Positions 1-36,802 of a DNA stretch of 64,000 nt are shown one piece after another. The notes under the pieces are model-generated. The model was not told the DNA's origin. It ran no database searches and saw only the letters and a list, made by a program, of their open reading frames with translations. The DNA comes from Thermodesulfovibrio sp. (GTDB lineage: Bacteria > Nitrospirota > Thermodesulfovibrionia > UBA6902): NCBI GenBank assembly GCA_026982355.1, contig JALSHG010000012.1, forward strand, positions 30,579 to 94,578. Direction: 5' to 3'. The translations under genes were made by a program, and so were the position numbers. The first letter of the stretch is position 1. Each line of letters begins with the position of its first letter.

Positions 1-470
1 AGGGCCTGTTTGATTCAATATGGTACTTCCCCGTGATACGCAATACCACATTCAGCATACGCGGCAGATTCGGTTATGCCACGGGCTTTGCAGGCAGGGA
101 CCTCCCCCTGTATGAACGCTTCTACGTGGGGGGGATCAACACGGTAAGGGGCCTTGGTTTCGGAGAGGGGGGGCCGAGAAACGAACAGGATGAAAAGATC
201 GGCGGCAACAAGGAGCTTATCTTCAATAACGAATATATCATACCCATTGCAAAGGACATCAGGCTTAAAGGCGTCCTGTTCTTTGACTACGGCGCCTCTT
301 TCGACAAGAGCGACAATATATCCCTGCGCGATATGAGAAGCACCGCCGGATTCGGTTTCAGGTGGATGTCACCGTTCGGACCCATAAGACTGGAATGGGG
401 GTACAACCTGGACCCGAGAGAGGGGGAGAGCAACAACAGGCTTGAATTCACAATGGGAGGAGTCTTTTAA
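1..470 (+). CDS. bamA: Outer membrane protein assembly factor BamA, C-terminal beta-barrel portion (5'-truncated by window edge)
   Basis: Translation ...RFGYATGFAGRDLPLYERFYVGGINTVRG...LEWGYNL...EFTMGGVF ends in an aromatic residue, typical of the Omp85/BamA C-terminal barrel; followed by skp-lpxD-fabZ-lpxA as in the canonical bamA cluster. Confidence 0.85.
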   Translation, partial: GLFDSIWYFPVIRNTTFSIRGRFGYATGFAGRDLPLYERFYVGGINTVRGLGFGEGGPRNEQDEKIGGNKELIFNNEYIIPIAKDIRLKGVLFFDYGASFDKSDNISLRDMRSTAGFGFRWMSPFGPIRLEWGYNLDPREGESNNRLEFTMGGVF

Positions 471-488
471 TACAAGAGGGGAGGCTTT

Positions 489-1034
489 ATGAGAAAAACG
501 GTTTTCGTGACAATTCTGTCGGTATTTGCGCTTGCCCTGAGCGCACAGGCATCGGACCTGAAGATCGGTTACGTGGATTTGAACAGGGCGTTGAACCAGT
601 CCGATGAGGGCAGGAAGGCCGTAAAGGTGCTGAAAGACATGCTCAGGGCCAACAAGGAACGTCTGATCAAAAAGAACGAAGAGATCAAAAAGCTCGAGGA
701 GGAGATCGCCAAACAGGCTTCCATCCTCAATCCGGAGGCCATAAAGAAAAAGAAGGAGGAGCGTGAAAGGCTCATCAGGGACTTTCAGAGGCTGCGGCGG
801 GATTCCGAGGATGAATACCGTAAGAAAGAAAACGACTTTGTGCAGAAGATATTCGGGGAGATGCGGGTCATCCTGGCCGAGATAGCCGCCGGGGAAGGCT
901 ACACCGTGGTCTTTGAAAAAAACGAGGGCGGCATACTCTATATATCGAAGAAGCTGGACCTGACCGACAAGTTAATCAGCGAATTCAACAAAAGATCTTC
1001 GGAAAAAGCCGCGAAAGGTAAAAAAAGCAAGTAG
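489..1034 (+). CDS. skp: Periplasmic chaperone Skp/OmpH
   Basis: 181 aa, signal peptide (ALALSAQA), charged coiled-coil K/E-rich body, position between bamA and lpxD. Confidence 0.85.
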   Translation: MRKTVFVTILSVFALALSAQASDLKIGYVDLNRALNQSDEGRKAVKVLKDMLRANKERLIKKNEEIKKLEEEIAKQASILNPEAIKKKKEERERLIRDFQRLRRDSEDEYRKKENDFVQKIFGEMRVILAEIAAGEGYTVVFEKNEGGILYISKKLDLTDKLISEFNKRSSEKAAKGKKSK

Positions 1035-1062
1035 TCTCAACAGTCGGTGACGGCCCAACACC

Positions 1063-2070
1063 ATGAAACTCAGGGAACTGGCAGATATTACAGGCGGCAG
1101 GGTATCCGGTGATCCGGATGTTGAAATAACGGGGGTATCGGGGATAAAGGAGGCCGGCGAAGGGGATATCACGCTCCTGTCGGACAGGAAATACCTTGAG
1201 GACGTCCTGAATTCACACGCCTCGGCCGTGATTGTAAGGGAAGAGCCTGAGGGGCTGAAGGCAAGCATGCTCGTTGTGGACAACCCGCAGCTTGCCTTTG
1301 CAAAGGCGCTGGAGGTCTTTTACGGGAAACCCTTCAGGCCGGCGGGCGTCAGTGAACGGGCCGTTGTCGGCGCCAACGTCGGCATGGGCGAGGATGTCTC
1401 CATACATCCGCTTGCCTGTATAGGCAACAACGTCACGCTCGGGGCGCGGGTCGTCATATTCCCGGGGGTTTATATCGGCGAAGATGTCTCTATAGGCGAT
1501 GACTCGGTCGTTCACGCCAATGCAACCATCAGGGAGAATGTGAGGATCGGCAGCAGGGTGACGGTCCATGCAGGCGCGGTTATCGGAGCCGACGGCTTCG
1601 GGTATGTATCTGAAAAGGGGGTGCATCATAAAATCCCCCAGGTCGGGGGCGTGATAATCGAGGATGACGTTGAGATTGGGGCGAATGTTGTAATCGACAG
1701 GGCCACGACCGGCAATACGGTTGTGGGATGCGGCACAAAGATCGACAATCTCGTCCAGGTCGCCCATAATGTAACAATAGGCAAACATTGTATAATAGTA
1801 GCCCAGACCGGCATCAGCGGCAGCGTGGAGATCGGCGACGGGGTGGTGCTCGGAGGCCAGGTGGGGGTCAGGGATCACGTGAAGATAGGCGGCAGGGCCA
1901 TGGCAGGCGCACAGTCGGGCGTCACCGGCGATATCCCGGCGGGGGAGGTGTATTCCGGGACCCCGGCGATCCCGCACAGGACCTGGCTGCGCGCGCAGGG
2001 CATATACGCAAAGCTGCCGGAGTACGTGAGGCGCCTGCGGGACCTGGAGAGAAAGCTCAACCGCGTCTGA
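1063..2070 (+). CDS. lpxD: UDP-3-O-(3-hydroxyacyl)glucosamine N-acyltransferase LpxD
   Basis: 335 aa, left-handed beta-helix hexapeptide repeats, N-terminal [12 protein letters not shown]... typical LpxD. Confidence 0.93.
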
Positions 2071-2109
2071 AATTCCGCTTGCGGATTTAGCATAAGGAGG
2101 GACAGTTAC

Positions 2110-2550
2110 ATGATGAACAGCCGTGAAATACAAAACATCCTGCCCCACAGATTCCCCTTTCTCCTGGTGGACAGGATTACCGAGATACAGCCCAATGCAA
2201 AGGCAGTGGGCATTAAGAACGTCACCATCAACGAGCCGTTCTTTCAGGGGCATTTCCCCGACTATCCCATAATGCCCGGGGTGCTGGTCATAGAGGCCAT
2301 GGCGCAGGTCTCGGGGATACTGGCCTCTCATTCGGGAGCAAAGGGGAAATCCGTATTTTTCATGAGTATAGAGAAAGCCAAGTTCAGAAAGCCCATAATC
2401 CCGGGGGACCAACTGCGCCTGGAGGTTAACGTCCTGCAGCACAGGAGCAATGTGTGGAAATTTTCAGGCCAGGCGTTTGTGGACACCAGGCTTGTTGCGG
2501 AGGCCGAATTCACGGCCATGGTCACTGAAGAGGAATTGAAAAATGGCTAA
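2110..2550 (+). CDS. fabZ: 3-hydroxyacyl-ACP dehydratase FabZ
   Basis: 146 aa, ILPHRFPFLLVDRI motif and hot-dog fold; strong RBS AAGGAGGG upstream. Confidence 0.95.
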   Translation: MMNSREIQNILPHRFPFLLVDRITEIQPNAKAVGIKNVTINEPFFQGHFPDYPIMPGVLVIEAMAQVSGILASHSGAKGKSVFFMSIEKAKFRKPIIPGDQLRLEVNVLQHRSNVWKFSGQAFVDTRLVAEAEFTAMVTEEELKNG

Positions 2551-3322
2551 GCCGAAGATTCACCGTACGGCTATTGTTGACCCCGGTGCGAAACTCTCCG
2601 AGGGGGTGGAGATAGGCCCTTACTGCATTGTGGGCAAAAGGGTGAAACTCGGTGAAAACACCAGGCTTTTTTCGAATGTGGTCATAGAAGAAACGGAGAT
2701 GGGCCGTAACTGTGTTGTATACCCCTTTACCTCGATAGGGCTCCCCCCGCAGGACATCAGATACAAGGGCGAAAAAACAGCGGTCAGGATAGGCGACGAC
2801 AATATCATAAGGGAATATATCACCATTCACCGCGGCTCCGTGGGCGGGGACAAGGCGACAAGGATAGGAAACAACAATTTCCTGATGGCTTATGTGCATA
2901 TCGCCCATGACTGCAATATAGGCAACCACGTGATAATGGCCAATGCAACCACGCTGGCGGGCCATGTGGTTGTGGAGGATTATGCATTCATAGGTGGGCT
3001 TGTCGCCGTGCACCAGTTTACGAAAATAGGGGCCTATTCAATGATAGGCGGTTTCAGCGCGATCCCGCAGGATATTCCGCCTTTTACGACCGCCGCGGGC
3101 GACAGGGCGAAACTCTACGGCCTGAACACCGTGGGCCTGAAACGCCAGAATTTCAAGGACTCGACGATCAAGGACCTCAAAAAGGCCTACAAGATATTGT
3201 TCCGCAGCAAGCTTACCCTGAAGGAGGCCATAAACAAATTAAAAAATGAGGTCGGGCAGTCGGATGAGATCAAATATCTCATCCGGTTTATTGAAGAAAA
3301 CAAGAGAGGGATATGCCGCTGA
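2543..3322 (+). CDS. lpxA: Acyl-ACP--UDP-N-acetylglucosamine O-acyltransferase LpxA
   Basis: 259 aa hexapeptide-repeat protein directly after fabZ. Confidence 0.93.
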   Translation: MAKPKIHRTAIVDPGAKLSEGVEIGPYCIVGKRVKLGENTRLFSNVVIEETEMGRNCVVYPFTSIGLPPQDIRYKGEKTAVRIGDDNIIREYITIHRGSVGGDKATRIGNNNFLMAYVHIAHDCNIGNHVIMANATTLAGHVVVEDYAFIGGLVAVHQFTKIGAYSMIGGFSAIPQDIPPFTTAAGDRAKLYGLNTVGLKRQNFKDSTIKDLKKAYKILFRSKLTLKEAINKLKNEVGQSDEIKYLIRFIEENKRGICR

Positions 3323-4161
3323 AGGCGTCCGGTGAATCAGGAGCATCCAGGACACTGGGGCTTATCGCGGGAACGGGCGACCTGCCGGGTGCGGTTGCAT
3401 CCGGAGCAAAGAAAATGGGCTACAGGGTCGTGGCGATAGCCCTGCAGCCGCCTGCGGACGAGTCGTTGAAACCGGTTGCGGATGATTTCCACAGGATAAA
3501 TATCGGCCGGTTCGGTGGCCTGATAAATCTGCTCAAGAAACTGTCCGTCACCGAGGCGGTTATGGCGGGGAAGGTGCCCAAACGCCTCCTTTACGCAAAC
3601 AAGGCAAGCCTTGTCCCTGACCTGAAGGCCGTGAAGCTGCTCTTCTCACTGAAAAACCGCTCGGACGACACCATTATGAAGGCCGTTGTCGGGGAGCTGG
3701 AAAAAAACGGCATCAGACTCCACAAGACAACCGCCTTTACAAAGGACCTGCTTGCCCCTGAAGGGGTGATGACACGCAGGAGACCCTCAAAGGGCGAGAT
3801 GCAGGACATAGAGTTCGGATGGGGCATCGCCAGGAAGATAGGCCGGCTGGACATCGGCCAGACAGTTGTCGTAAAGGATCAGGCTGTCATGGCGGTTGAA
3901 GCCATTGAGGGAACGGACGAGGCCGTCAGGAGAGGCGGCGTCCTTGCGGGAAAGGATGCGGTCGTGGTGAAGGTGAGCAAGCCGCAGCAGGATATGCGTT
4001 TTGACGTGCCTGTCGCGGGCGGCGGCACTCTCAGCGCAATGAAAACCTCGGGGGCAAGGGTGCTGGCGGTTGAAGCCGGAAAGTGCATCATTATTGACAG
4101 GGAGAACTTCATAAAGGAAGCCGACAGGGCGGGCATTGTGGTGGTGGGAATAAAGAAATGA
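3313..4161 (+). CDS. lpxI: UDP-2,3-diacylglucosamine hydrolase LpxI (DUF1009 family)
   Basis: 282 aa, overlaps lpxA stop, N-terminal LGLIAGTGDLP motif typical of LpxI found after lpxA in LpxH-less bacteria. Confidence 0.8.
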   Translation: MPLKASGESGASRTLGLIAGTGDLPGAVASGAKKMGYRVVAIALQPPADESLKPVADDFHRINIGRFGGLINLLKKLSVTEAVMAGKVPKRLLYANKASLVPDLKAVKLLFSLKNRSDDTIMKAVVGELEKNGIRLHKTTAFTKDLLAPEGVMTRRRPSKGEMQDIEFGWGIARKIGRLDIGQTVVVKDQAVMAVEAIEGTDEAVRRGGVLAGKDAVVVKVSKPQQDMRFDVPVAGGGTLSAMKTSGARVLAVEAGKCIIIDRENFIKEADRAGIVVVGIKK

Positions 4162-5081
4162 TAAGGGTCGCGGTCATAGGCGCAGGCTCGATCGGGTATC
4201 ATCACGCGAGGATATTCTCAGGCCTGGAAGGTGTGGAGCTTGCCGCTGTAGTGGATATTGATCCGCAGAGGGCGCGGCAGGTCGCATCGGAATACAACTG
4301 CGCGGCGTGCGTTGATTACATGGATATCATCGGCTCCGTGGATGCGGCCAGCATTGCGGCGCCTACCACGCTGCACTTCCGGATAGGGATGGACATCCTG
4401 AAACACGGCAGGAACCTGCTCATTGAAAAGCCGGTGACAACGACTGTCGAAGAGGCCGATGCGCTTATCCGCGAGGCTGAAAAGAGAAATCTCGTGCTCC
4501 AGGTGGGGCACCTTGAAAGATTCAACCCGGGGGTCTCCATGCTGAGCAGGCAGGTGGACAGACCGGATTTTATCGAATGCCGCAGGCTGTCCCCTTTTCT
4601 CGGAAGGGGCGCTGATGTGGATGTCACACTTGACTTAATGATACACGACATAGATATAATATTAAGTTTGGTGAACTCCGGTATTACCGATATCCGCGCC
4701 ACGGGGGCAAAGGTCCTGACTGAAAATATCGATACGGCCCGTGCATGGATTGAATTTGAAAACGGCTGCATCGCCGAGGCCTCGGCAAGCAGGATAGAGA
4801 AGGAAAAGACCCGGCGGCTCAGGATATTCCAGCGCGGGTCACTGATGGACCTGGACTATCGGACACAGGAGATAACCTGCCGCAGGGGTCTCAACGGCAG
4901 TGCGGCCGAGATCAAGAGGCCGGAGCCGAAAGAGCCGCTCAGGGAAGAGCTCATATCTTTTATGGAATGCGTGCGCAACGGGACAAGGCCCGCTGTCTCG
5001 GGGCATGAGGGCAGGGAGGCCCTGAGGGTCGCATTAAAGATATCCGGGCTGGTTAATGAAGGGCTCCGGACATACAACTGA
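4158..5081 (+). CDS. Gfo/Idh/MocA-family NAD-dependent oxidoreductase; candidate UDP-GlcNAc 3-dehydrogenase (GnnA-like)
   Basis: N-terminal Rossmann MIRVAVIGAGSIGYHHARIF; embedded in lipid A cluster and followed by a DegT aminotransferase, matching the GnnA/GnnB arrangement. Confidence 0.65.
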   Translation: MIRVAVIGAGSIGYHHARIFSGLEGVELAAVVDIDPQRARQVASEYNCAACVDYMDIIGSVDAASIAAPTTLHFRIGMDILKHGRNLLIEKPVTTTVEEADALIREAEKRNLVLQVGHLERFNPGVSMLSRQVDRPDFIECRRLSPFLGRGADVDVTLDLMIHDIDIILSLVNSGITDIRATGAKVLTENIDTARAWIEFENGCIAEASASRIEKEKTRRLRIFQRGSLMDLDYRTQEITCRRGLNGSAAEIKRPEPKEPLREELISFMECVRNGTRPAVSGHEGREALRVALKISGLVNEGLRTYN

Positions 5082-5086
5082 CGACA

Positions 5087-6211
5087 ATGATAAAAACCGT
5101 TCACAGTAAAGCTTCCATACCCATGCTTGACCTCAAGGCCCAGCATGAGCCGCTGCAGGAGGAAATAAAATCAGTTCTGAAAGAGATACTGGACAGCGGC
5201 CAGTTCGTGCTGGGGCCCAACGTGGAATCCCTTGAGCAGGAGATAGCGTCATACTGCAATGTCAAAAACGCCGTGGCCCTTGCATCCGGCACCGATGCGC
5301 TGCACCTGTGTCTGCACGCCCTCGGCATAACCTCGGGCGACGAGGTGATCACCACGCCGTTCACCTTTATTGCGTCCGCAGAGGCAATCACTTATGTGGG
5401 GGCCAGGCCGGTCTTTGTTGATATAGACGGCGATACACTGAATATAGACGCCGCAAAGATAGAAGAAAAGATAACCCCCAGGACGAAGGCCATAGTCGTT
5501 GTTCACCTTTTCGGCCAGCCTGCGGACATGAAAGAGATCATGAACATTGCAGGAAGATACAATCTCAGGGTGATCGAAGACTGCGCCCAGGCCTTCGGGG
5601 CCACATATGGCGGTGTTCCCGTAGGAAGCATGGGCGATTCCGGGTGTTTCAGCTTTTATCCGAGCAAGAACCTCGGCGCCTACGGCGACGGCGGCATGAT
5701 GATAACAAACAATCCGGGCATATACGAAAAGGTGAGGCTCCTCAGAAACCACGGGACCGTCGGCCCCTACCGGCATGGTTTCCTGGGTTACAACAGCAGG
5801 CTGGATGAAATCCAGGCCGCCATACTCAGGATAAAATTAAGGCACATAGACGAATACAATGAAAAGAGGCGCGGCATCGCAAAACTGTACTCCTCCGTGC
5901 TCGGCGGCGCTGTCAGGTGCCCGGTGGAGCTGGAGGACAGGGTGCATGTCTATCACCAGTACACCATAAGGACACCGTTCAGGGGCGAGGTGAAGAAGGC
6001 CCTTGCCGGGCATTCCATATCATCCGTTGTCTATTACCCGCTTTCACTCCATATGCAGGAGGCGTTCAGGTATCTCGGTTATTCGGAGGGCGACTTCCCG
6101 GAGAGCGAGGCGGCGGCGAGGGAGGTACTGTCACTTCCGATTTATCCGGAGCTTGACCCCGGGGCGGCGAATTTTATTGCAGAGACCGTCCTGAAGGCGC
6201 TCGGCGCTTAG
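5087..6211 (+). CDS. DegT/DnrJ/EryC1/StrS-family PLP aminotransferase; candidate UDP-3-keto-GlcNAc aminotransferase (GnnB-like)
   Basis: 374 aa; LDLKAQ motif near the N-terminus and sugar aminotransferase fold; partner of the upstream oxidoreductase. Confidence 0.65.
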   Translation: MIKTVHSKASIPMLDLKAQHEPLQEEIKSVLKEILDSGQFVLGPNVESLEQEIASYCNVKNAVALASGTDALHLCLHALGITSGDEVITTPFTFIASAEAITYVGARPVFVDIDGDTLNIDAAKIEEKITPRTKAIVVVHLFGQPADMKEIMNIAGRYNLRVIEDCAQAFGATYGGVPVGSMGDSGCFSFYPSKNLGAYGDGGMMITNNPGIYEKVRLLRNHGTVGPYRHGFLGYNSRLDEIQAAILRIKLRHIDEYNEKRRGIAKLYSSVLGGAVRCPVELEDRVHVYHQYTIRTPFRGEVKKALAGHSISSVVYYPLSLHMQEAFRYLGYSEGDFPESEAAAREVLSLPIYPELDPGAANFIAETVLKALGA

Positions 6212-6226
6212 CCGGGTTGCCGGTAC

Positions 6227-8035
6227 TCAGTCGGTTTCCGTGATCTTTATGACCTGCCCCACGTATAACCGCGTGGATTTGAGGTTGTTGATCCGTTCAA
6301 GGGTCTTTGTGTTTGTATTGAATCTCCTGGCAATCAGCCAGAGCGAATCCCCCTTTTTGATACGGTACAGGCCGTCCGGCGGCAGACCCACCTTTGATGC
6401 GCGGAGGTTTCTGTATGAGACGCTGTAGGAGCTGTCCCTCAGGGGTATTTTCAGTTTCTGGCCCACCCGGATGAAATGTTTGCGCCGTATATCGTTGGCC
6501 ATGATTATCTTCCTGACGGTCGTGCGGTATTTCATGGCTATAAGCGACAGTGTCTCGCCTTTCTTGACCCTGTGGTATACATATGCGTTCTCCGGAGGAG
6601 CCCAGCCGGGTATCTCCTCGAGCTTTGCAAGCAGCACCTCGGTCATGCCTGCAGGCACCTTGAGCGCATACGGCGTGGCCGGCGTCACCTGATAACGCAG
6701 CTCGGGATTCAGTTCCCTGAGCACTTTCAGAGGGATGCCCAGTTCCCCGGCCACCGTCTTCAGGAGAACCGGTTTTTCGATGGTTACGGATTCATACAGT
6801 ACCGGCGGATCCGGCTCTCCCAGTTTGAATCCGTATTTTTCCGGGTCTTTCAGGATGTGCAGGGTTGCCAGGAATTTCGGGACATACCGCGCGGTCTCCC
6901 GTGGAAGCTCCCTGTACAGGTCCCAGAAGTTGTCGAGGTAATTGATCCTCTGATTGCGGATCGTCCTCAGGACGGTCCCTTCCCCGCAGTTGTAACCCGC
7001 AAGCACAGTTGTCCAGTCTCCGAAGATATTGTGCAGCTCTTTCAGGTAGGCGATGGCGGCCCTGGTCGATTTTTCGGGGTCCAGCCTTTCGTCGACCCAC
7101 GTGTCCCTCTTCAGGCCGAACTTCGAGCCCGTGGAGGAAATGAACTGCCACAGGCCCAGGGCGCGTGCGCGGGACATGGCCCTGACCTTGAAGCCGCTCT
7201 CTATCAGGGGCAGCCAGGCAAGGTCCTCGGGCAGGCCGGCCTCTTTCAGGGCGGCCACTATCATATTCATGTATCTTCCGGAGCGCTTGTACGACTCCAG
7301 GAAAAACCTGCGGTCCGGCCCCTGGAACCTTTTAATCTCCTTTGCCACGTGCTCATTCATTGTCAGGGGAATCTCGTTATGGTTCCCGTTGACCGCCGTG
7401 TACCGCGAGGCGTATATCTCCAGGATCCTCTTTGAAATCATGAAGCGCAGGTCTTCCTTCTGCTGGATCAGTTCGGGATATTCGTTGATATCAACCTGAA
7501 GGACAAGGGCGTATGCCTGGTCCAGCATCTCTATGGCCTTCTCAAGGTTGCCCTCGGACCAGAACTCCTGGGCCGCATTGCTATAGTCCAGGGCCGCATC
7601 AAGGAGGTTCTGCTCCTTTCCCGTGTCCTCCGTGTCATCATAGAATCCCACATCCTGGATTTTCTCCACGGGGATGTTTTCCGTGTTTCCGGCATCCGGC
7701 GCTGCCCGGACCGTCTCCATGTCCGTCTCATCGACCGGTTCATTGTCATTGCCGCCGGCGTTGCAGTCCGCACAGGCTTTATCATTTTCATCGGTTGGAT
7801 TTACATCCGCAGCCTCGCTTTTTTCTTCCGGTTCCGGTTCTTTCATTTGTTCGCTGCGGGGTTCCGCCTTCACGTCCGGGGCATCTTCATTCCCCTCAAC
7901 CATTATGGCAGGCGGAGCGGCGGCTTCGGGCGGCCTGTTTATCCGGAAGTTGCCAAGGAGTGTGTTGGGAAGGCTGCAGCCGAACGCCAGGACGGAAAGC
8001 AGCAGGACCACGTATCTGAAATCAAGCATATTCAT
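6227..8035 (-). CDS. mltD: Membrane-bound lytic murein transglycosylase D-like (SLT domain plus two C-terminal LysM domains) with long acidic N-terminal low-complexity region
   Basis: 602 aa; lipoprotein-like signal (LAFGC); SLT motifs LPLIESGF, GLWQF, AGYNCGEG; LysM repeats YHRVKKGETLSLIA and YRIKKGDSLWLIA. Confidence 0.8.
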   Translation of the reverse strand: MNMLDFRYVVLLLSVLAFGCSLPNTLLGNFRINRPPEAAAPPAIMVEGNEDAPDVKAEPRSEQMKEPEPEEKSEAADVNPTDENDKACADCNAGGNDNEPVDETDMETVRAAPDAGNTENIPVEKIQDVGFYDDTEDTGKEQNLLDAALDYSNAAQEFWSEGNLEKAIEMLDQAYALVLQVDINEYPELIQQKEDLRFMISKRILEIYASRYTAVNGNHNEIPLTMNEHVAKEIKRFQGPDRRFFLESYKRSGRYMNMIVAALKEAGLPEDLAWLPLIESGFKVRAMSRARALGLWQFISSTGSKFGLKRDTWVDERLDPEKSTRAAIAYLKELHNIFGDWTTVLAGYNCGEGTVLRTIRNQRINYLDNFWDLYRELPRETARYVPKFLATLHILKDPEKYGFKLGEPDPPVLYESVTIEKPVLLKTVAGELGIPLKVLRELNPELRYQVTPATPYALKVPAGMTEVLLAKLEEIPGWAPPENAYVYHRVKKGETLSLIAMKYRTTVRKIIMANDIRRKHFIRVGQKLKIPLRDSSYSVSYRNLRASKVGLPPDGLYRIKKGDSLWLIARRFNTNTKTLERINNLKSTRLYVGQVIKITETD

Positions 8036-8260
8036 CTTACAGTCCGTTTCAGCCCGTTTCAGCAGTTTACCTTCATACAGCCTTTATTTTACATAATCCG
8101 GCACGCAATATGCAATTACAAAAAGCAATATATATTACGGGGCAAAAAATGGCATTGCCCACCAAATTCATTGAAAATCAAATAGTTAGATGTGAACCGT
8201 TGTCCCCTCAATGTCATATTGATGACAAGCACCATTTCTTATTGAAACGGTATATTGTAT

Positions 8261-10525
8261 CTAAGCCTTGAGAGCCGGCTGAAGGTTTTCCGCTTCCCGG
8301 AGTTCTTCCCTGTAGCCGCACTCCTTTTTTATACATGCGATATACTCGCCTTTTTTCGTCCGCTTTTCGACCAGGATGGCGGCTCCGCATTCCGGGCAGG
8401 TCCTGTCCACCGGCCTGTACCATATGGCGAATTTACACGCGGGATAATTCCCGCAACTGAAAAACACCTTGCCCCTTTTGGTTCTCCTCTCCACTATCTC
8501 ACCGCCGTCTTCAGGACACCTGACGCCGATGCCTATAGCCTTCGTCGTCTTGCATTCGGGATATTTACTGCAGGCGAGAAACCTGCCGAACTTGCCGGAT
8601 TTCAACACCATGGGGGAGCCGCATTTTTCACATTTCTCGTCCGTCTCCTGCGCATCCGCGGCCTTTGCCCGGCCGTCGCCGTTCCGGTTTTCAAAAGGCA
8701 TGGTGTTTTTGCAGCCGGGATACCCCGTGCAGGCGATAAACCTTCCGTGCCTGCCCCATTTAATGACCATGGGAGAGCCGCATTTTTCACATACGTGCTC
8801 TGTGGGGATGTCCTGCGGCTTTACCTTGCCCTGGATTTTCATGGCCTCTTCAAGGTCATGGTCGAACGGCCTGTAGAAATCCATCACGATATCAACCCAC
8901 CGCAGGCCGCCCTCCTCGATCCTGTCCAGGTTGCTCTCCATCTTTGCGGTGAAGTTGTAATCCATCAGCTCCGGGAATCTCTCGACAAGCAGGTCGCTGA
9001 CGATGATTCCGAGTTCCGTGGGCTTGAACCTGCCCTCGGTTTTCTCGGTATACTTCCTGTCCTGTATCGTTGAGAGAATCGTGGCGTACGTGCTCGGCCG
9101 CCCGATTCCCTTTGCTTCAAGCTCCCTGACGAGGCTTGCCTCTGAAAACCTCGGCGGCGGCTGCGTGAAGTGCTGCTTCGGCGTTATGGCGATCTTCGCC
9201 AGCACATCACCTTCCGATAAGGGGGGCAGCAGTCCTTCATCCTCTCCTCCGTTGTCCCCGCTTTCAGTGTAGAGTTTCATGAACCCCGGGAACTTGACAA
9301 CAGTGCCGGTTGCCCGGAAGGTGTACTTCCCCGCCTCTATATCCACAGAGGTCTGCTCCAGAAGCGCATGGTGCATCTGGCTGGCGACAAAACGGTTCCA
9401 GATGAGTTTGTAAAGGTTGTACTGGTCCCGTGTCAGATACTTCCTCACCGCCGCCGGGGGCCTGAGAAGCGATGTGGGCCTTATTGCCTCGTGCGCATCC
9501 TGTGAAGACTTTTTGCTCTTGTAAACCGGCGGTTTCTGGGGGAGATACTCCCTGCCGAACTCACCCCTTATCAGTGCCCGCGCCTCCTGCTGCGCTTCAG
9601 CGGAGACCCTCACGGAGTCGGTTCTCATATAGGTTATAAGCCCCGTCGAGCCCTCATCGCCGAGTTCTATCCCTTCATAGAGCTGCTGGGCAACGAGCAT
9701 TGTTTTCTTGGCCGTGAACCTGAGCTTTCTTGACGCCTCCTGCTGAAGGGTGCTCGTAATAAACGGCGGGGCGGGGGAACGCCTCCTCTTCTTTTTCTCT
9801 ATCTTTTTTACAATAAAACTTTTGCCCTCTGTATCCTCCACTATCCTGGCGGCTTCGGATTCATTTTTAACCTCGGCCTTTTTCCCGTTTATGTGAAAGA
9901 GCCTTGCGTCAAACGGGGGCGGCTCCTTGCCCTGCAGCGTCGCCGTGATGCTCCAGTACTCCTCTGGCCTGAAGGCCTGGATCTCGCGTTCCCTGTCCAC
10001 GACAAGCCTCAGCGCCACGGACTGGACCCTCCCGGCGCTGAGACCGCGGCGGACCTTGCGCCACAGCAGCGGCGAGAGCTTGTAGCCCACAAGCCTGTCC
10101 AGTATTCTCCTTGCCTGCTGCGCGTCGACGAGATTCATGTTGATCTTCCTCGGATGTCTGATGGCCTCCGTCACAGCCTTTTCGGTTATCTCGTTGAACT
10201 CCACCCGGAATATCTTATCCGAGGAAGCGCCGTTTAACTCCTCGGCAATATGCCACGCTATCGCCTCCCCCTCCCTGTCGGGGTCAGGGCCGAGGAAGAC
10301 CCTGTCGGCGTTCCTGGCCGCCTTTTTCAGCTCGTTGAGGACTTTCTCCTTCCCTTCGATCACCACGTAAGTGGGCGAGAGGTTGTTTTCGATATCCACG
10401 CCAAGCTCTTTCCTCGGCAGGTCTTTCACATGCCCGACGGATGCCTTGATGGCGAACTTCTTACCGAGAAACTTCCCGAGGGTCTTCACCTTGGCCGGTG
10501 ACTCAACAATCAAAAGTGACTTCAT
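8261..10525 (-). CDS. topA: DNA topoisomerase I
   Basis: 754 aa; TOPRIM N-terminus MKSLLIVESPAKVKT; several C-terminal C4 zinc ribbons. Confidence 0.95.
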   Translation of the reverse strand: MKSLLIVESPAKVKTLGKFLGKKFAIKASVGHVKDLPRKELGVDIENNLSPTYVVIEGKEKVLNELKKAARNADRVFLGPDPDREGEAIAWHIAEELNGASSDKIFRVEFNEITEKAVTEAIRHPRKINMNLVDAQQARRILDRLVGYKLSPLLWRKVRRGLSAGRVQSVALRLVVDREREIQAFRPEEYWSITATLQGKEPPPFDARLFHINGKKAEVKNESEAARIVEDTEGKSFIVKKIEKKKRRRSPAPPFITSTLQQEASRKLRFTAKKTMLVAQQLYEGIELGDEGSTGLITYMRTDSVRVSAEAQQEARALIRGEFGREYLPQKPPVYKSKKSSQDAHEAIRPTSLLRPPAAVRKYLTRDQYNLYKLIWNRFVASQMHHALLEQTSVDIEAGKYTFRATGTVVKFPGFMKLYTESGDNGGEDEGLLPPLSEGDVLAKIAITPKQHFTQPPPRFSEASLVRELEAKGIGRPSTYATILSTIQDRKYTEKTEGRFKPTELGIIVSDLLVERFPELMDYNFTAKMESNLDRIEEGGLRWVDIVMDFYRPFDHDLEEAMKIQGKVKPQDIPTEHVCEKCGSPMVIKWGRHGRFIACTGYPGCKNTMPFENRNGDGRAKAADAQETDEKCEKCGSPMVLKSGKFGRFLACSKYPECKTTKAIGIGVRCPEDGGEIVERRTKRGKVFFSCGNYPACKFAIWYRPVDRTCPECGAAILVEKRTKKGEYIACIKKECGYREELREAENLQPALKA

Positions 10526-24350: not shown

Positions 24351-24599
24351 ATGGGTGATATAAAAATAGACAAGCACCTGGATATAAGGGGAGAGGTATG
24401 CCCGTACACCCTGGTGAAGTCAAAGCTCGGTGTCGAGTCCATAGAAGTGGGACAGGTGATAGAGATAATCCTGGATTATCCGGAGGCCGCGGAGAGCATC
24501 CCGAAGGCAATGCTCAATTACGGGCATTCGGTCATTAAGGTGGAAAAAATCAATCCAAAGGAATGGATTGTCCAAATAAGAAAAGAGGTTGAAGACTGA
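24351..24599 (+). CDS. tusA: TusA-family sulfurtransferase
   Basis: 82 aa; DIRGEVCPYT (CPxP) active-site motif. Confidence 0.8.
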   Translation: MGDIKIDKHLDIRGEVCPYTLVKSKLGVESIEVGQVIEIILDYPEAAESIPKAMLNYGHSVIKVEKINPKEWIVQIRKEVED

Positions 24600-25399
24600 T
24601 GGAATTCACGGAAGAACAGTTAAAGAGATACAGCAGGCATATAATCCTGCCCGAAGTGGGCGGCAAGGGACAGAAGAAGATTTCAGGGGCGAAGGTCCTC
24701 ATAGTCGGCGCAGGCGGACTGGGCTGCCCCGCGGGGTATTATCTTGCGGCGGCCGGGGTCGGCACCCTGGCAATCGTGGATAACGACACCGTGGAGCTCA
24801 GCAACCTGCAGAGGCAGATAGCACACAGTGTAAAGACACTCAATGTCAACAAGGCCGAGTCGGCCAAACAGACCTTTGAGGCGCTGAACCCCGACGTCAA
24901 CGTGATCGCGGTAAAGGAAAGGATAAACAGCAGGAACATCCTTAACCTTATAAGGGATTATGATATTATTGTGGACGGCACGGACAATTTTCCCACGAGA
25001 TACCTGATCAATGATGCATGCGTAATGCTCCGCAAGCCGCTCGTCAGCGGGGCCATTCTCAGGTTCGAGGGGCAGGTGACCGCCATACTGCCCGGTGAGG
25101 GGCCTTGCTACCGCTGTCTGTTTGAAGAACCGCCTCCGCCCGGGCTTGTTCCTTCATGCCAGGAGGCCGGAGTGCTCGGAGTTCTTCCCGGTGTTATCGG
25201 GGCATTGCAGGCAACCGAGGTGCTTAAACTGATCCTCGGGAAGGGCCTGCCCTTAAAGGGCAGTCTGCTGATATATGACGCCCTCGGGGTGAATTTCAGG
25301 AAGGTAAAAATACCCAGGAACGATAACTGCCCTGTATGCGGTAAAAACCCCCGCATTAAAGAGCTGAGCGACCTTCCGGAAGAGTACTGCTCGATATAA
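24599..25399 (+). CDS. ThiF/MoeB/MoeZ-family E1-like adenylyltransferase for sulfur-carrier proteins
   Basis: 266 aa; LIVGAGGLGCPAGYYLAAAGVG nucleotide motif; C-terminal CxxC...CxxC zinc site (CYRC, CPVC). Confidence 0.85.
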   Translation: MEFTEEQLKRYSRHIILPEVGGKGQKKISGAKVLIVGAGGLGCPAGYYLAAAGVGTLAIVDNDTVELSNLQRQIAHSVKTLNVNKAESAKQTFEALNPDVNVIAVKERINSRNILNLIRDYDIIVDGTDNFPTRYLINDACVMLRKPLVSGAILRFEGQVTAILPGEGPCYRCLFEEPPPPGLVPSCQEAGVLGVLPGVIGALQATEVLKLILGKGLPLKGSLLIYDALGVNFRKVKIPRNDNCPVCGKNPRIKELSDLPEEYCSI

Positions 25400-25426
25400 A
25401 CCTTAATGTTGCATAAAACCACCGCC
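25399..25426. repeat. Half copy (AACCTTAATGTTGCATAAAACCACCGCC) abutting the moeB/thiF stop codon
   Basis: Direct reading. Confidence 0.7.
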
Positions 25427-25539
25427 TCGCATACTCCCCCTTTGCCCGGGAGGGGCCTGAGTGGAAAATTCCGTGCTGTTGAATTATTATCGGATTTACC
25501 GTAATCTATTTGAATGCTGATGATCGTGGAGGCTACTAA

Positions 25540-26778
25540 ATGGGTTTCGTAAAAGGACTTAAATGCAGGGAATGCGGAAGGGAATACGCGGTTGACCCCA
25601 TATATGTGTGTGAGTTCTGCTTCGGCCCCCTGGAGGTTGTTTATGATTATGACGGGATCATGGATGTCCTGACAAGGGAAGAGATACTGTCAAGGCCCCA
25701 GAACCTGTGGCGTTACAAGGAGCTGATGCCGATAGACGGGGAGCCCACGAGCGGGCTTAACTCCGGGTTTACGCCGCTTGTGAAGGCAGACAAGCTGGGC
25801 GGGTATCTCGGGCTGAAGGAACTTTACATAAAGGATGACACCGTCACACACCCGACACTTTCTTTCAAGGACAGGGTTGTGGCCGTTGCATTGTCCAAGG
25901 CCAGGGAGTTCGGATTCGACACTGTTGCATGCGCCTCCACAGGGAATCTCGCCCATTCGGTGTCGGCTCACGGCGCTGCCGCGGGTTTCAGGAGATTCAT
26001 CTTCATCCCGGCAAGCCTTGAACGCAGCAAGATAGTTGCATCGCTTGCGTATGAGCCGAATCTCATAGCCGTTGACGGCAACTATGACGATGTCAACAGG
26101 CTCTGCAGCGAGGTGGCCAATAAATATCCGTGGGCGTTTGTAAACATAAATATCAGGCCGTTCTATGCAGAGGGATCGAAGTCCCAGGGATACGAGATCG
26201 TGGAGCAGCTCGGATGGAAGGCGCCGGATGCAATCGTTGTGCCGTGCGCGAGCGGTTCTTTAATGACAAAGATATGGAAGAGCCTCAAAGAGATGAATCG
26301 GATCGGTCTTATCGGCGAAGTGCAGACAAAGATTTTTTCCGCGCAGGCGACCGGCTGTTCCCCTATCGTAAGGGCTATAAAGGAAGGCGTTGATGTGATC
26401 AAACCCGTAAAACCCGATACGGTGGCAAAATCCCTTGCCATCGGAAATCCCGCAGACGGCTTTTACGCCACTCAGGTTGTCAAGGAAAGCGGAGGGTTCG
26501 GAGCGGATGTATCCGATGCCGAGATAATAGAGGCGATAAAGCTTCTTGCAAGGACGGAGGGGATTTTTGCCGAGACCGCCGGCGGTGTAACGCTCGCCTC
26601 TGCAATAAAGCTGATGGAAAGCGGGCACATAGCCAAGGATGCCGTGACGGTTCTCAGCATTACAGGCAACGGCCTCAAGACCAAAGAGGCCATCATGGGA
26701 CATACGGCCGAGCCTCACCATATCGATCCCAACCTGAAGTCATTTGAGGAGGCATTGAAGAAGATCAACGCGGCTTGA
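25540..26778 (+). CDS. Threonine synthase-like PLP enzyme (fold type II) with N-terminal zinc ribbon; candidate carrier-protein-thiocarboxylate-dependent sulfhydrylase (MetM-like)
   Basis: 412 aa; CRECG...CEFC ribbon; PLP-lysine motif SFKDR; encoded between the E1-like gene and the ThiS-like carrier; a canonical thrC lies downstream. Confidence 0.7.
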   Translation: MGFVKGLKCRECGREYAVDPIYVCEFCFGPLEVVYDYDGIMDVLTREEILSRPQNLWRYKELMPIDGEPTSGLNSGFTPLVKADKLGGYLGLKELYIKDDTVTHPTLSFKDRVVAVALSKAREFGFDTVACASTGNLAHSVSAHGAAAGFRRFIFIPASLERSKIVASLAYEPNLIAVDGNYDDVNRLCSEVANKYPWAFVNINIRPFYAEGSKSQGYEIVEQLGWKAPDAIVVPCASGSLMTKIWKSLKEMNRIGLIGEVQTKIFSAQATGCSPIVRAIKEGVDVIKPVKPDTVAKSLAIGNPADGFYATQVVKESGGFGADVSDAEIIEAIKLLARTEGIFAETAGGVTLASAIKLMESGHIAKDAVTVLSITGNGLKTKEAIMGHTAEPHHIDPNLKSFEEALKKINAA

Positions 26779-26782
26779 GATA

Positions 26783-26880
26783 ACCTTAATGTGGTGGCAT
26801 CCACGTGCAGAGGAGTCTGCCGGAAAACCTGCCGCACACTCCTCTGCTCCGCCGCCGGTATTTCATGCAACTGTAAGGAC
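26783..26880. repeat. Full-length copy of a dispersed palindromic intergenic element (arms AACCTTAATGTGGTGGCAT / ATGCAACTGTAAGG; inner inverted repeat GCAGAGGAGT / ACTCCTCTGC)
   Basis: Direct reading; arms are reverse complements; same family as copies listed below. Confidence 0.8.
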
Positions 26881-26906
26881 TCAAAATTTTTCAAGGAGGA
26901 AGATAA

Positions 26907-27206
26907 ATGGCTGTTAAAGTGAAAATCCCCGTGCCCCTTCAGCGGCTTACGGGGGGACGGGAAGAAGTCGAGGGAACACCCGGCACCATAATATCGCTTA
27001 TCAACGACCTTGATCGGAAGTACCCCGGACTTGCCGAGAGAATATCCGAGGGAGGAAAGATCAGGAGATTTGTCAATGTCTATGTTAATGAAGAGGATGT
27101 GAGATTCATGAAAAACGAGGAAACGGAAGTCAAGGACGGTGACGAAGTCTCTATAGTCCCTGCAATCGCAGGGGGCGGTGTTTTCTGTAAAAAAGGAGGA
27201 CGGTGA
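26907..27206 (+). CDS. ThiS/MoaD/CysO-like sulfur carrier protein with internal GlyGly followed by a short C-terminal extension
   Basis: 99 aa beta-grasp-sized protein ...VSIVPAIAGGGVFCKKGGR; strong RBS; 3' end overlaps next gene start. Confidence 0.65.
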   Translation: MAVKVKIPVPLQRLTGGREEVEGTPGTIISLINDLDRKYPGLAERISEGGKIRRFVNVYVNEEDVRFMKNEETEVKDGDEVSIVPAIAGGGVFCKKGGR

Positions 27207-27442
27207 TGAAGACCAGGGTGAAGCTGACCTTTCCCCAGCACCTCATAAAAGAACCGGTGATATTTACCATGGCAAAGAAATACGACATAATACCCAATAT
27301 CAGAAGGGCGCGGGTCACCGAGTCCGTGGGCGAGATGGTCCTTGAGCTCGAAGGCGCGGATGAAAACGTCAACAGCGGCATAGAGTCACTCAAGCAGCAG
27401 GGCGTGGACGTAGAGCTTGTGGAAGGCGATATACTGGAATAA
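27206..27442 (+). CDS. NIL-domain small protein (MetN C-terminal-like ferredoxin-fold domain)
   Basis: ~78 aa; RBS AAGGAGGA 6 nt upstream of ATG 27206; similarity pattern to NIL domains of methionine importer ATPases. Confidence 0.5.
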   Translation: MKTRVKLTFPQHLIKEPVIFTMAKKYDIIPNIRRARVTESVGEMVLELEGADENVNSGIESLKQQGVDVELVEGDILE

Positions 27443-27444
27443 CC

Positions 27445-28512
27445 ATGCGACCATGGTACGGACTGATTGACCAGTACAGGGATTTCCTCCCCGTATCCGG
27501 GAAAACACCGGTTGTTACCCTGAATGAAGGCAACACCCCTCTTATAAGGGCATCCCGCCTGAACGAGGTTCTTGAGGAAGAGATAAATCTTTATTTTAAA
27601 TACGAGGGGTCCAATCCCAGCGGTTCATTCAAGGACCGCGGCATGACGCTGGCGATCTCAAAGGCGGTTGAAGACGGCGCAAGGGCCGTCATATGCGCAT
27701 CAACAGGCAATACATCCGCCTCCGCATCGGCCTATTCGGCAAAGGCCGGCATAGGCGCCATTGTCCTTATCCCCGAGGGCAAGATAGCCCTGGGCAAGCT
27801 CGCCCAGGCACTGATACACGGGGCAATGGTGCTGCAGGTTGAAGGCAATTTCGACGATGCATTGAGGATTGTCAAGGAGCTTGTGGAAAAACATCCCTTT
27901 GCCCTTGTCAATTCCCTGAACCCGTTCAGGATAGAGGGCCAGAAGACAGCGGCCTTCGAGATATGCGACCAACTGGGCGCAGCGCCTGATTACCATGTCC
28001 TCCCTGTAGGCAATGCCGGCAACATCACGGCATACTGGAAGGGGTACAGGGAGTACCGTGAGGCCGGCAGGACCGCTTCCCTGCCGAAGATGCTCGGATT
28101 TCAGGCCGCCGGGGCCGCGCCTATAGTAAAGGGCAGGCCGGTGGAACGCCCGGAGACAGTGGCCACTGCCATAAGGATCGGGAACCCCGCAAGCTGGAAG
28201 GGGGCCATTGCCGCAAGGGATGAATCAGGAGGGCTTATAGAATCCGTCACCGATGAAGAAATTATCAATGCCTACAAACTGATAGCTTCAAGGGAAGGTA
28301 TCTTCTGCGAGCCTGCATCCGCCGCCACACTGGCCGGCGTGATAAAACTCTCAAAACGTAATTTTTTTTCGAAAGGCGACACGGTTGTCTGCACACTTAC
28401 AGGCAATGGACTGAAAGACTCCGACAGCGCCCTTAAGTTATCCGCGCCTCCTGTAAAGGTAAAGGCCGAGATAACGGCCGTTGAGGAACTGCTGAAGGGC
28501 TGCTGCCTGTAA
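27445..28512 (+). CDS. thrC: Threonine synthase
   Basis: 355 aa short-type ThrC; GSNPSGSFKDRG PLP motif. Confidence 0.9.
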   Translation: MRPWYGLIDQYRDFLPVSGKTPVVTLNEGNTPLIRASRLNEVLEEEINLYFKYEGSNPSGSFKDRGMTLAISKAVEDGARAVICASTGNTSASASAYSAKAGIGAIVLIPEGKIALGKLAQALIHGAMVLQVEGNFDDALRIVKELVEKHPFALVNSLNPFRIEGQKTAAFEICDQLGAAPDYHVLPVGNAGNITAYWKGYREYREAGRTASLPKMLGFQAAGAAPIVKGRPVERPETVATAIRIGNPASWKGAIAARDESGGLIESVTDEEIINAYKLIASREGIFCEPASAATLAGVIKLSKRNFFSKGDTVVCTLTGNGLKDSDSALKLSAPPVKVKAEITAVEELLKGCCL

Positions 28513-34403: not shown

Positions 34404-35954
34404 TCAGAAAATCTCCCTTATGTATTCCGCTATCAGGCTTTCCTGTCCTGCATAGGCTGTCTGGTTCACCTGTTCAATCAAATGCTGCACCGACGCGTGC
34501 ATGTAGCTCAGGAAGGCATTGGGATAAAACCCTATCCAGAATACGAGCACGATCAACGGAATCAATGTGATAACCTCCCTGGCATTCAAATCCCATACGG
34601 GGTGGTGCCCCTCTTTTTCATAGTCAGGCTTCGGCTTTTCAAAGAATATATTCTGGTAAAGCCGCAGCATGTAGCCGGCGCCGAGTATGATGCCGGTGGC
34701 TGCAAATACACCAAGGAGCTTTTTTGCCTTGAAGGCGGAGAATATAATCAGGAACTCCCCGATGAAGCCGTTCGTGCTCGGCAGCCCGATCGAGGCCAGT
34801 GTAAGGATTATGAAAAAGCCCGCATACCACGGTACAAGCCTGGCAAAGCCGCCGTAGTCCGCGATCACCCTTGTGTGCGTCCTCTCGTAAATCATTCCTA
34901 TCATAAGGAACATCGCGCCCGTGACGATGCCGTGGTTCAGCATCTGCAGTATGCCGCCTTCAAGCCCCTGTGTGTTGAGCGCAAAGAGACCGAGTGTGAC
35001 AAAACCCATGTGGCTCACGCTGGAGTACGCTATCAGCCGCTTGAAATCCTTCTGCGCAAAGCAGACAAGCGCGCCGTAAATAATTGCGATAATGGAGAGT
35101 ATCAGCACCGGCCACATGAAGAACCGTGTTGCATCCGGCAGCATGGGCATGGAAAACCTCAGGAATCCGTAAGCGCCCATCTTGATCAGGACGCCGGCCA
35201 GTATGACACTGCCGGCAGTAGGCGCCTCTGTATGGGCGTCCGGAAGCCATGTATGCACCGGGAACATCGGGACCTTGACGGCAAACGCGGCAAAGAACGC
35301 TATAAACAGCCAGTACTGCAGCGTCACCGGATACTGCATGCTGCTCAGCGCCAGGATGTCGAGGGTCCTGCCGCCGTAGAAGTAAAGGACGACTATGCCG
35401 ACCAGCATGAGCACGCTTCCGACCAGCGTATACAGGAAAAACTTTATTGCGGCATAGACCCTGTTCTGGCCGCCCCATACGCCTATCAGCAGGAACATGG
35501 GGATCAGCATGGCCTCCCAGAACAGGTAGAAGAGGAAGAAATCCAGCGCCACGAACACGCCCAGCATTCCCGCCTCCATTGTGAGGATGGCTATGTGGAA
35601 CTCCTTTGTCTTTGTTTCGATAGCCTTCCATGAGACAAGGACACAGAGTATGCTGAGGACGGTCGTGAGAAAAATAAACAATATGCTGATGCCGTCTATG
35701 CCTATGAAATAGTTTATCCCCCATGACGGAATCCACTCGTGCCTTTCCACGAACTGCATCTTGTATGTGCTCTTGTCAAAGTTGCTCAGCAGCGGCAGGG
35801 AGATGACGAAAGTGGCGACCGTCACGCCGAGTGAAGTCCATCTTATAACATTCGCCTGCTTCAGGAACAGGAGAAGCACCGCGCCGATAACGGGCAGAAA
35901 CACCGTCCACGTCAGTATCGGGTAACCAAGGCTGTTTAATATTATATTTTCCAT
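34404..35954 (-). CDS. nuoM: NADH-quinone oxidoreductase subunit M
   Basis: 516 aa antiporter-like subunit. Confidence 0.9.
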   Translation of the reverse strand: MENIILNSLGYPILTWTVFLPVIGAVLLLFLKQANVIRWTSLGVTVATFVISLPLLSNFDKSTYKMQFVERHEWIPSWGINYFIGIDGISILFIFLTTVLSILCVLVSWKAIETKTKEFHIAILTMEAGMLGVFVALDFFLFYLFWEAMLIPMFLLIGVWGGQNRVYAAIKFFLYTLVGSVLMLVGIVVLYFYGGRTLDILALSSMQYPVTLQYWLFIAFFAAFAVKVPMFPVHTWLPDAHTEAPTAGSVILAGVLIKMGAYGFLRFSMPMLPDATRFFMWPVLILSIIAIIYGALVCFAQKDFKRLIAYSSVSHMGFVTLGLFALNTQGLEGGILQMLNHGIVTGAMFLMIGMIYERTHTRVIADYGGFARLVPWYAGFFIILTLASIGLPSTNGFIGEFLIIFSAFKAKKLLGVFAATGIILGAGYMLRLYQNIFFEKPKPDYEKEGHHPVWDLNAREVITLIPLIVLVFWIGFYPNAFLSYMHASVQHLIEQVNQTAYAGQESLIAEYIREIF

Positions 35955-35969: not shown

Positions 35970-36725
35970 TTATTTTGATTCAAGTATAAAACGCTTGTTG
36001 ATGGGCTGGGTCGGCCTGTTGTTGTGCCCTCCTATGACCGCCTCGAATTTCCTGATCTGCTCCCCGGACACCTCAATGGGGGTCTTCAGCACGCTCCAGT
36101 TGACCCCCTCACTGCACGGCGGCGTGGTCAGAGAGCCGTAGAAATGATAGTAGCCCCTTTCAGCGGGCAGCAGGTCGGCGGCGTTGACGGATATGGAGTC
36201 CACGGTGTTTTCCTCGTTTACGACAGGTGAGATGTTGTCCCATATCTTCTGTATGAGATCATTGGCCCTGCCCTCTTTCAGGAATACGCCCACCACGGCA
36301 AGCTCGTTGTTGCTGTTTTTATGAACGAGGTGCATTTCCATGCTGTAATGTTTGCCTCCAACGGTGTTTTCGCTCGGAGCATGAAAGTGAAACTGGAGGA
36401 GTTCGTACTTTTCGCCGTCCACAATTACGGAACTGCCCGGCAGGTAATTGACCTGTACGGTGTGGCCGTTGTTGATCACCTTCAGCGGCGTTGCCTTGTA
36501 GGAGAACACTATGTCTTGCAGGTCCGCCTTGTATGTTTTGTTGATATCCACGGGTGACTGGGCCTTGCCCTTTTCGCACATGCTGAAATCGTGTGACAGT
36601 TTGCCCCAGTGTTCAGGGCCGTTTTCCCCTGTATATCCCCACAGGCCGTGGGCGGCCTCCGCCCTGGATGAAAACGACATGAGTAATACCGCCGCCGACA
36701 GAATAAAAAGACATACTTTCTTCAC
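35970..36725 (-). CDS. Alpha-class carbonic anhydrase, secreted (Sec signal peptide), encoded inside the nuo operon between nuoL and nuoM
   Basis: GTG start at 36725 preceded by AAGGAGGG RBS; signal KKVCLFILSAAVLLMSFSSRAEA; alpha-CA motifs HWGY, QSPVDI, NNGH, QFHFHAPSE, EMHLVH, GSLTTPPCSE. Confidence 0.9.
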   Translation of the reverse strand: MKKVCLFILSAAVLLMSFSSRAEAAHGLWGYTGENGPEHWGKLSHDFSMCEKGKAQSPVDINKTYKADLQDIVFSYKATPLKVINNGHTVQVNYLPGSSVIVDGEKYELLQFHFHAPSENTVGGKHYSMEMHLVHKNSNNELAVVGVFLKEGRANDLIQKIWDNISPVVNEENTVDSISVNAADLLPAERGYYHFYGSLTTPPCSEGVNWSVLKTPIEVSGEQIRKFEAVIGGHNNRPTQPINKRFILESK

Positions 36726-36802
36726 AATAATCCCTCCTTCTGAAATAATATTTGCCTGGTAAAACAAACTGTATATGAATTCACTCTCTATCTGAATCAT
36801 AA

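Follow-up and report, generated by a model that had tools for sequence, protein, structure and literature searches.

The closest described relatives of the system considered here are the enzymes GnnA and GnnB, which make 2,3-diamino-2,3-dideoxyglucose (GlcN3N) in Acidithiobacillus ferrooxidans, and homologues of their genes serve as genomic markers for lipid A with GlcN3N in Capnocytophaga, Campylobacter, Mesorhizobium, Oligotropha and Caulobacter (PMC3342949, PMC8036547, PMC7663294). Legionella pneumophila and Caulobacter crescentus are among the species with a GlcN3N lipid A backbone, and in Campylobacter the inactivation of gnnA/gnnB raises both the sensitivity to antimicrobial peptides and the otherwise low Toll-like receptor 4 (TLR4) activation (PMC8036547). 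We analysed a 64,000-nt stretch of contig JALSHG010000012.1 of assembly GCA_026982355.1 (hereafter the window; positions are counted from its first letter), which belongs to an uncultured Nitrospirota lineage. Directly behind a set of lipid A genes it carries an oxidoreductase gene (4158-5081) and an aminotransferase gene (5087-6211). Judging from their sequences, these are very probably orthologues of gnnA and gnnB that stand last in a lipid A operon, and the lipid A backbone of this organism would contain GlcN3N with amide-linked acyl chains.

An earlier note on this DNA had reported an oxidoreductase of the Gfo/Idh/MocA family and a DegT-family aminotransferase immediately after lpxD-fabZ-lpxA-lpxI, and had proposed that the two are a GnnA/GnnB pair. 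Both genes were recovered as open reading frames at exactly these coordinates, both on the plus strand, with Pfam and NCBIfam matches and independent public gene calls in agreement. The first encodes a predicted nicotinamide adenine dinucleotide (NAD)-dependent 3-dehydrogenase of UDP-GlcNAc (uridine diphosphate N-acetylglucosamine) of 307 amino acids (Pfam GFO_IDH_MocA, 1.3e-28, and C-terminal domains). The second encodes a predicted pyridoxal phosphate (PLP)-dependent UDP-3-keto-GlcNAc 3-aminotransferase of 374 amino acids (Pfam DegT_DnrJ_EryC1, 2.4e-121). The proposal itself is supported by homology, by catalytic residues, by collinearity with the A. ferrooxidans prototype, by a conserved linkage to lpx genes and by the absence of O-antigen genes and of WbpA/D/I-type genes from the window.

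When the oxidoreductase was compared with all PDB sequences, the best match was 7bvj/7bvk (E 2.7e-53, 184 bits, residues 2-298 of 307), and the next-best Gfo/Idh/MocA structure reached 68 bits (E 5.6e-18). The 7bvj protein has been identified as GnnA, the UDP-GlcNAc 3-dehydrogenase of lipid A synthesis (bioRxiv 10.1101/2024.11.05.622173). Proteins 97-99% identical to it come from Acidithiobacillus, and A. ferrooxidans GnnA is by far the closest characterised relative of the window protein. WlbA/WbpB-type structures (3q2k and 3q2i) gave 30-33 bits, confined to query residues 2-137. The Rossmann GxGxxG motif is present as GAGSIG at residues 8-13. The lysine of the EKP motif (K91) and the two residues of a D-x3-H motif (D159 and H163, within DLMIHD) have identical counterparts in the alignment with 7bvj and are kept in at least 97% of 82 homologues; their role is presumably catalytic, as is general for this family. 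The top NCBIfam model was NF040723 (UDP-N-acetylglucosamine 3-dehydrogenase) with 247 bits against an equivalog cut-off of 450, followed by inositol dehydrogenase with 112. Since the prototype GnnA of Acidithiobacillus itself scores 163 bits with NF040723 (a Legionella homologue scores 218), a value below the cut-off reflects the archaeal seed of the model and not a different activity.

Over its full length (361 aligned residues, E 1e-115) the aminotransferase shares 49% identity with Acidithiobacillus GnnB, the product of the gene immediately downstream of gnnA. Its named top PDB matches include QdtB and WbpE (268 bits for the latter), both of them nucleotide-sugar C3-aminotransferases; two further PDB relatives, 2oga and 5u1z, we take to be DesV and a Campylobacter C3-aminotransferase, respectively. 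The high-scoring solved relatives also include 7b0d and 7n63. Because raw scores do not single out GnnB, we built a neighbour-joining tree from the window aminotransferase, Acidithiobacillus GnnB, 32 GnnA-adjacent aminotransferases from other genomes and five solved enzymes. The window protein groups with Acidithiobacillus GnnB and the GnnA-adjacent proteins, and 148 of 200 bootstraps separate the five solved C3-aminotransferases from them (162 when the position of one alphaproteobacterial outlier is left free). All 34 members of the GnnB/GnnA-adjacent group have F92 and T69, which are absent from the five solved enzymes, and all but one have S67; the PLP lysine K194 together with D165 and Q168 is invariant in the 39 aligned sequences. 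We regard membership of the window protein in the GnnB group as moderately supported, by context together with the tree and not by score alone.

The start of gnnB is uncertain, since its homologues, including Acidithiobacillus GnnB and the solved enzymes, begin to align at residue 10-13. Two candidate start codons lie 36 nt apart, an ATG at 5087 and an in-frame ATG at 5123, neither of them with an obvious Shine-Dalgarno sequence; the 12 extra N-terminal residues are kept in the closest relative of the window locus (L001, below).

A scan of one genome per species returned at least 589 GnnA relatives, and the loci of the best 80 (given L numbers here) were compared. Represented among them are Nitrospirota, Methylomirabilota, Elusimicrobiota, Omnitrophota, Acidobacteriota, Desulfobacterota (cable bacteria included), Planctomycetota and Verrucomicrobiota, as well as Legionella and other gamma- and alphaproteobacteria. 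At 64 of the 80 loci, lpxA, lpxI, lpxB, kdtA or lpxK lies within 7 kb of the GnnA homologue; an adjacent GnnB-like gene is found at 34 and both a GnnB-like gene and lipid A genes at 28. Pfam searches confirmed LpxB, KdtA, LpxK and MsbA in two example loci. The usual order in Nitrospirota is gnnA-gnnB-lpxB-(msbA)-kdtA-lpxK, and this group stands separate from the early lpx genes. The order lpxI-gnnA-gnnB followed by an mltD-like gene on the opposite strand was found only in the window and in L001 (88% identity), and the junction of gnnA-gnnB with the reversed mltD is kept in the window, L001, L002 and L003. Upstream of gnnA, L002 and L003 have purB and other genes of no related function; in L003 these encode, besides PurB, a beta-propeller protein and a PfkB kinase. 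As only the window and L001 have lpxI upstream (followed outward, in the window, by the other early lpx genes), we read the window layout as a lineage-specific rearrangement on the 5′ side of gnnA.

Two side observations concern the relatives of the oxidoreductase. Among cable bacteria (Electrothrix/Electronema), four of five loci (L040, L042, L062 and L066) lack an lpx neighbour, whereas lpxB is close to the gene in the fifth, L049. NCBI assigns to 'Deferribacteres bacterium' a partial protein that shares 94% identity with the window oxidoreductase; apart from one Candidatus Brocadiales, almost all the other close relatives that carry a label are Nitrospirota, and the Deferribacteres label is probably a binning or classification inconsistency.

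The genes ahead of the pair are all on the plus strand. The window opens with the 3′ end of bamA (33-470, an Omp85 open reading frame cut by the window start), the first gene of the conserved bamA-skp-lpx cluster; on the public contig bamA is complete and encodes 763 amino acids with POTRA and Omp85 domains. It is followed by skp/ompH for a periplasmic chaperone (489-1034; Pfam OmpH, 6.3e-25), lpxD for the N-acyltransferase that acts on the 2-amino group of the lipid A sugar (1063-2070; NCBIfam TIGR01853, 373.7 bits, cut-off 242.5), fabZ for 3-hydroxyacyl-acyl carrier protein dehydratase (2110-2550; NCBIfam TIGR01750, 198 bits, above cut-off) and lpxA for the first lipid A acyltransferase (2543-3322; NCBIfam TIGR01852, 356 bits, above cut-off). 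Next comes lpxI (3313-4161) for UDP-2,3-diacylglucosamine hydrolase, the alternative to LpxH, with Pfam matches to LpxI_N (2.3e-37) and LpxI_C (1e-50) and an NCBIfam LpxI equivalog score of 151.6 bits, under its cut-off of 400. Adjacent genes overlap by 8 nt (fabZ/lpxA), 10 nt (lpxA/lpxI) and 4 nt (lpxI/gnnA, as ATGA), and gnnA and gnnB are 5 nt apart. The spacing is operon-like from fabZ through gnnB, and we infer that skp-lpxD-fabZ-lpxA-lpxI-gnnA-gnnB are co-transcribed. Downstream, a gene for an MltD-like lytic transglycosylase (6227-8035, minus strand; Pfam SLT and two LysM domains; NCBIfam MltD, 210 bits, below cut-off) converges with gnnB, with 15 nt between the stop codons; it is the boundary of the cluster and stands outside the pathway. 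All these gene coordinates match the independent public calls for the same contig.

In the pathway that we propose, GnnA would oxidise the 3''-hydroxyl of UDP-GlcNAc with NAD+ to a 3-keto sugar, which GnnB would transaminate to UDP-GlcNAc3N, using PLP and taking the amine from a donor that is glutamate in the prototype. LpxA would N-acylate the new 3-amine instead of O-acylating the hydroxyl, and the usual LpxC, LpxD, LpxI and LpxB steps would come next. The expected product is a backbone with 2,3-diamino-2,3-dideoxyglucose that bears amide-linked acyl chains at positions 2 and 3. We infer the substrates, LpxA's use of the product and how far GlcN3N substitution goes. A literature search that paired gnnA with lpxI found nothing; Caulobacter crescentus, which has a GlcN3N backbone as mentioned above, presumably uses LpxI, and this would argue that LpxI is compatible with a diamino substrate.

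The window LpxA is 47% identical to that of Acidithiobacillus, with His122 at the place of the catalytic H125 of the E. coli enzyme and Gln70 at that of Q73. We tried to read its sugar selectivity from the residues around Q70 and gave this up, as the motif there, PPQD, resembles both that of Acidithiobacillus (APQD) and that of Burkholderia (RPQD). Robins et al., who described the Leptospira LpxA structure in 2009, are said to have ascribed selectivity to the orientation of the backbone carbonyl at this Gln and not to a side chain; if backbone orientation decides, sequence offers no test. As to acyl chain length, the hydrocarbon-ruler residue G173 of E. coli LpxA is also Gly in the window protein (G170), which has Arg (R188) where the E. 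coli enzyme has H191. Gly170 suggests, by analogy, a preference for longer 3-hydroxyacyl chains, of about C14 or more.

Several observations weigh against the assignment of the pair to GnnA/GnnB-dependent lipid A synthesis. The oxidoreductase is 35% identical to Acidithiobacillus GnnA (E 1e-51). With phmmer, the aminotransferase scores 368 bits against 7b0d and 347 against QdtB, a dTDP-sugar C3-aminotransferase, compared with 340 against Acidithiobacillus GnnB. As raw scores do not separate GnnB, the nucleotide-sugar specificity of the aminotransferase is argued mainly from context and the tree. A literature search on PDB entries 7B0D/7B0M returned unrelated papers and no substrate for 7b0d. 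The preference of LpxA for UDP-GlcNAc3N is not legible from sequence. In L002 and L003, the nearest loci outside the immediate lineage (68-69% identity), the pair has no lpx neighbour. In the window lpxB is not adjacent to gnnB, just as the earlier note had observed when it placed an oppositely oriented mltD-like gene there; lpxB, kdtA, lpxK and msbA gave no tblastn match in the window, and none of the four lies in the 6 kb upstream of it. A promoter and terminator scan of positions 1-8400 speaks neither for nor against a single transcript, with 6 promoter-like sites (5.2 in shuffles), 14 terminator-like sites (9.1 in shuffles) and, between lpxD and the gnnB stop codon, no plus-strand site that bears on this question. 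Finally, we found no literature that links GlcN3N lipid A to Nitrospirota.

Some of these points would fit a role of the pair in the synthesis of an O-antigen, capsule or S-layer glycan, of the WbpB/WbpE type (UDP-GlcNAcA) or the archaeal type (UDP-GlcNAc3NAc), with the place after lpxI being incidental. In that case the 3-amino sugar would undergo N-acetylation and perhaps also oxidation or epimerisation. Polysaccharide clusters often contain DegT and Gfo/Idh/MocA pairs, the top NCBIfam model of the oxidoreductase is built on archaeal glycan-pathway enzymes, and both the near-equal aminotransferase scores and the lack of lpx neighbours in L002 and L003 point the same way. Yet the 64 kb hold no WbpD/WlbB-type acetyltransferase, UDP-GlcNAc 6-dehydrogenase, 2-epimerase, glycosyltransferase or flippase, and no O-antigen, WbpA/D/I-type or other polysaccharide genes were seen elsewhere in the window. 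WlbA structures match the oxidoreductase at about 30 bits, the start of gnnA overlaps the stop of lpxI, most of the 80 loci are lpx-linked, and the tree puts the aminotransferase with GnnB. The WbpB/WbpE-type version was rejected on the weak similarity of the dehydrogenase and the missing partner genes. Given these missing partners, the weak resemblance to WlbA and the conserved lpx linkage, we consider a glycan role very unlikely. We find it slightly harder still to credit that the oxidoreductase has a role other than UDP-GlcNAc 3-oxidation, next to an unrelated aminotransferase, and take this to be very improbable. Such a role could be suspected from 36 of the 80 species, in which no DegT aminotransferase occurs within 7 kb of a GnnA-like gene that is close to lipid A genes (loci without a nearby DegT gene: L020, L024, L026, L028-L035, L038, L043-L047, L052-L055, L063, L070-L077). 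At these 36 loci the GnnA-like gene often sits between lpxA/lpxI and lpxB, as in L024 (lpxA-lpxI-gnnA-lpxB-msbA-kdtA-lpxK). The GnnA homologue is therefore not obligatorily paired in cis, and its aminating partner at those loci must be unlinked or different. However, unlinked genes are already known from M. loti, where gnnA and gnnB are mll2825 and mll7579 (PMC7663294), and Legionella, whose type species L. pneumophila has a GlcN3N backbone (PMC8036547), is itself represented at loci where no aminotransferase is adjacent (L047, L055 and L071). In the window the two genes nearly abut, and the oxidoreductase has the same catalytic residues as the crystallised GnnA.

The remaining alternative refines the GnnA/GnnB assignment: the pair would make UDP-GlcNAc3N, but LpxA would use both substrates, or flux would be limiting, with a hybrid GlcN3N-GlcN backbone or a mixed lipid A as the outcome. 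We see this as quite possible, if somewhat short of probable. LpxA selectivity and flux decide between a full GlcN3N backbone, in which all four primary chains are amide-linked, and a hybrid or mixture, and the sequence does not tell which applies. Sweet et al. are said to have found in 2004 that A. ferrooxidans makes both types of lipid A and that E. coli LpxA accepts both substrates. Among its PDB relatives, the window LpxA is less similar to the UDP-GlcNAc3N-specific Leptospira enzyme 3hsq (209 bits) than to those of E. coli (249 bits) and Burkholderia (254 bits), to which it is as close as to any other, and this would favour a hybrid, although overall similarity is no predictor of sugar selectivity. 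Capnocytophaga canimorsus, which bears gnnA/gnnB, has a GlcN3N-GlcN backbone; it has two lpxA genes, however (PMC3342949), whereas only one was seen in the window cluster.

The remaining genes of the window are of a housekeeping kind: ribonucleotide reductase, an amino-acid biosynthesis block, the nuo operon, glmU-glmS, uvrD and dnaG. The glmU-glmS pair (53273-56488, plus strand; Pfam NTP_transferase and Hexapep for the GlmU-type protein, GATase and two SIS domains for the GlmS-type protein) supplies UDP-GlcNAc, the predicted GnnA substrate, and lies 47 kb from the lipid A cluster, outside the operon. Inside the nuo (complex I) operon there is a gene for a eukaryotic-type (alpha) carbonic anhydrase (35970-36806, minus strand; Pfam Carb_anhydrase, 1.8e-49). 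It is flanked by two Proton_antipo_M genes, one nuoL-like (36803-38725) and one nuoM-like (34404-35954), and overlaps the upstream one by 4 nt. At 24599-28512 (plus strand) a ThiF/MoeB-family gene is followed by two PALP genes of the cysteine/threonine-synthase type; the N-terminus of the first gives a short match to the NinF zinc-ribbon model from phages (PF05810, 1.7e-11).

If the GnnA/GnnB assignment is right, the lipid A of an uncultured Nitrospirota lineage has a backbone of diamino sugar that carries amide-linked acyl chains, and amide linkages should be more stable chemically than esters. The known pathway would then extend to a phylum for which we found no lipid A chemistry in the literature. 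No new mechanism is revealed; the locus adds a place behind lpxI to those that the pair can take, behind lpxA or ahead of lpxB. The GnnA orthologue in lpx operons of many little-studied diderm phyla leads to a wider and distinctly tentative idea, namely that GlcN3N lipid A may be the common state outside the well-studied Proteobacteria and not an exotic variant. The window would be one instance of it, with LpxI working on a diamino substrate, and at the 36 loci with no aminotransferase close by, amination could be carried out by an unlinked or different enzyme. We think this idea rather doubtful for now.

Compared with the systems already described, the pair can be placed as follows. From the WbpB/WlbA and WbpE/WlbC enzymes, which likewise perform 3-oxidation and then 3-transamination of a UDP-linked acetamido sugar, it differs in that the substrate there is a uronic acid and that the partners WbpA, WbpD and WbpI are absent from the window. 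The archaeal UDP-GlcNAc 3-dehydrogenase family (NF040723) provides the best curated model for the oxidoreductase, matches it over its full length and has the same predicted chemistry; the archaeal members serve the synthesis of acetamido-sugar glycans and not that of lipid A. Other Nitrospirota (e.g. L004-L027, L036 and L051) also have an adjacent pair in a lipid A cluster, with 45-55% identity for GnnA and 56-61% for GnnB. There, however, the pair heads the late-step cluster from lpxB onward, separate from lpxD-fabZ-lpxA-lpxI, whereas in the window and L001 it is joined to the early-step cluster and lpxB is elsewhere. The closest counterpart is A. ferrooxidans. The Acidithiobacillus locus with the 7bvj-type gene reads bamA-skp-lpxD-fabZ-lpxA-gnnA-gnnB-lpxB-rnhB-dnaE, in keeping with the statement of the earlier note that the pair lies beside lpxA in A. 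ferrooxidans. The window is collinear with it, with the same two families in the same order downstream of bamA-skp-lpxD-fabZ-lpxA, and the EKP lysine and the DLMIHD motif occur in both oxidoreductases. It differs in that lpxI stands between lpxA and gnnA and that a convergent mltD-like gene takes the place of lpxB after gnnB; also, A. ferrooxidans is a proteobacterium, whereas the window pair is a prediction for an uncultured Nitrospirota host. We conclude that this is a known and widely distributed system, and that the window shows a minor variation of its organisation, with lpxI upstream and lpxB elsewhere.

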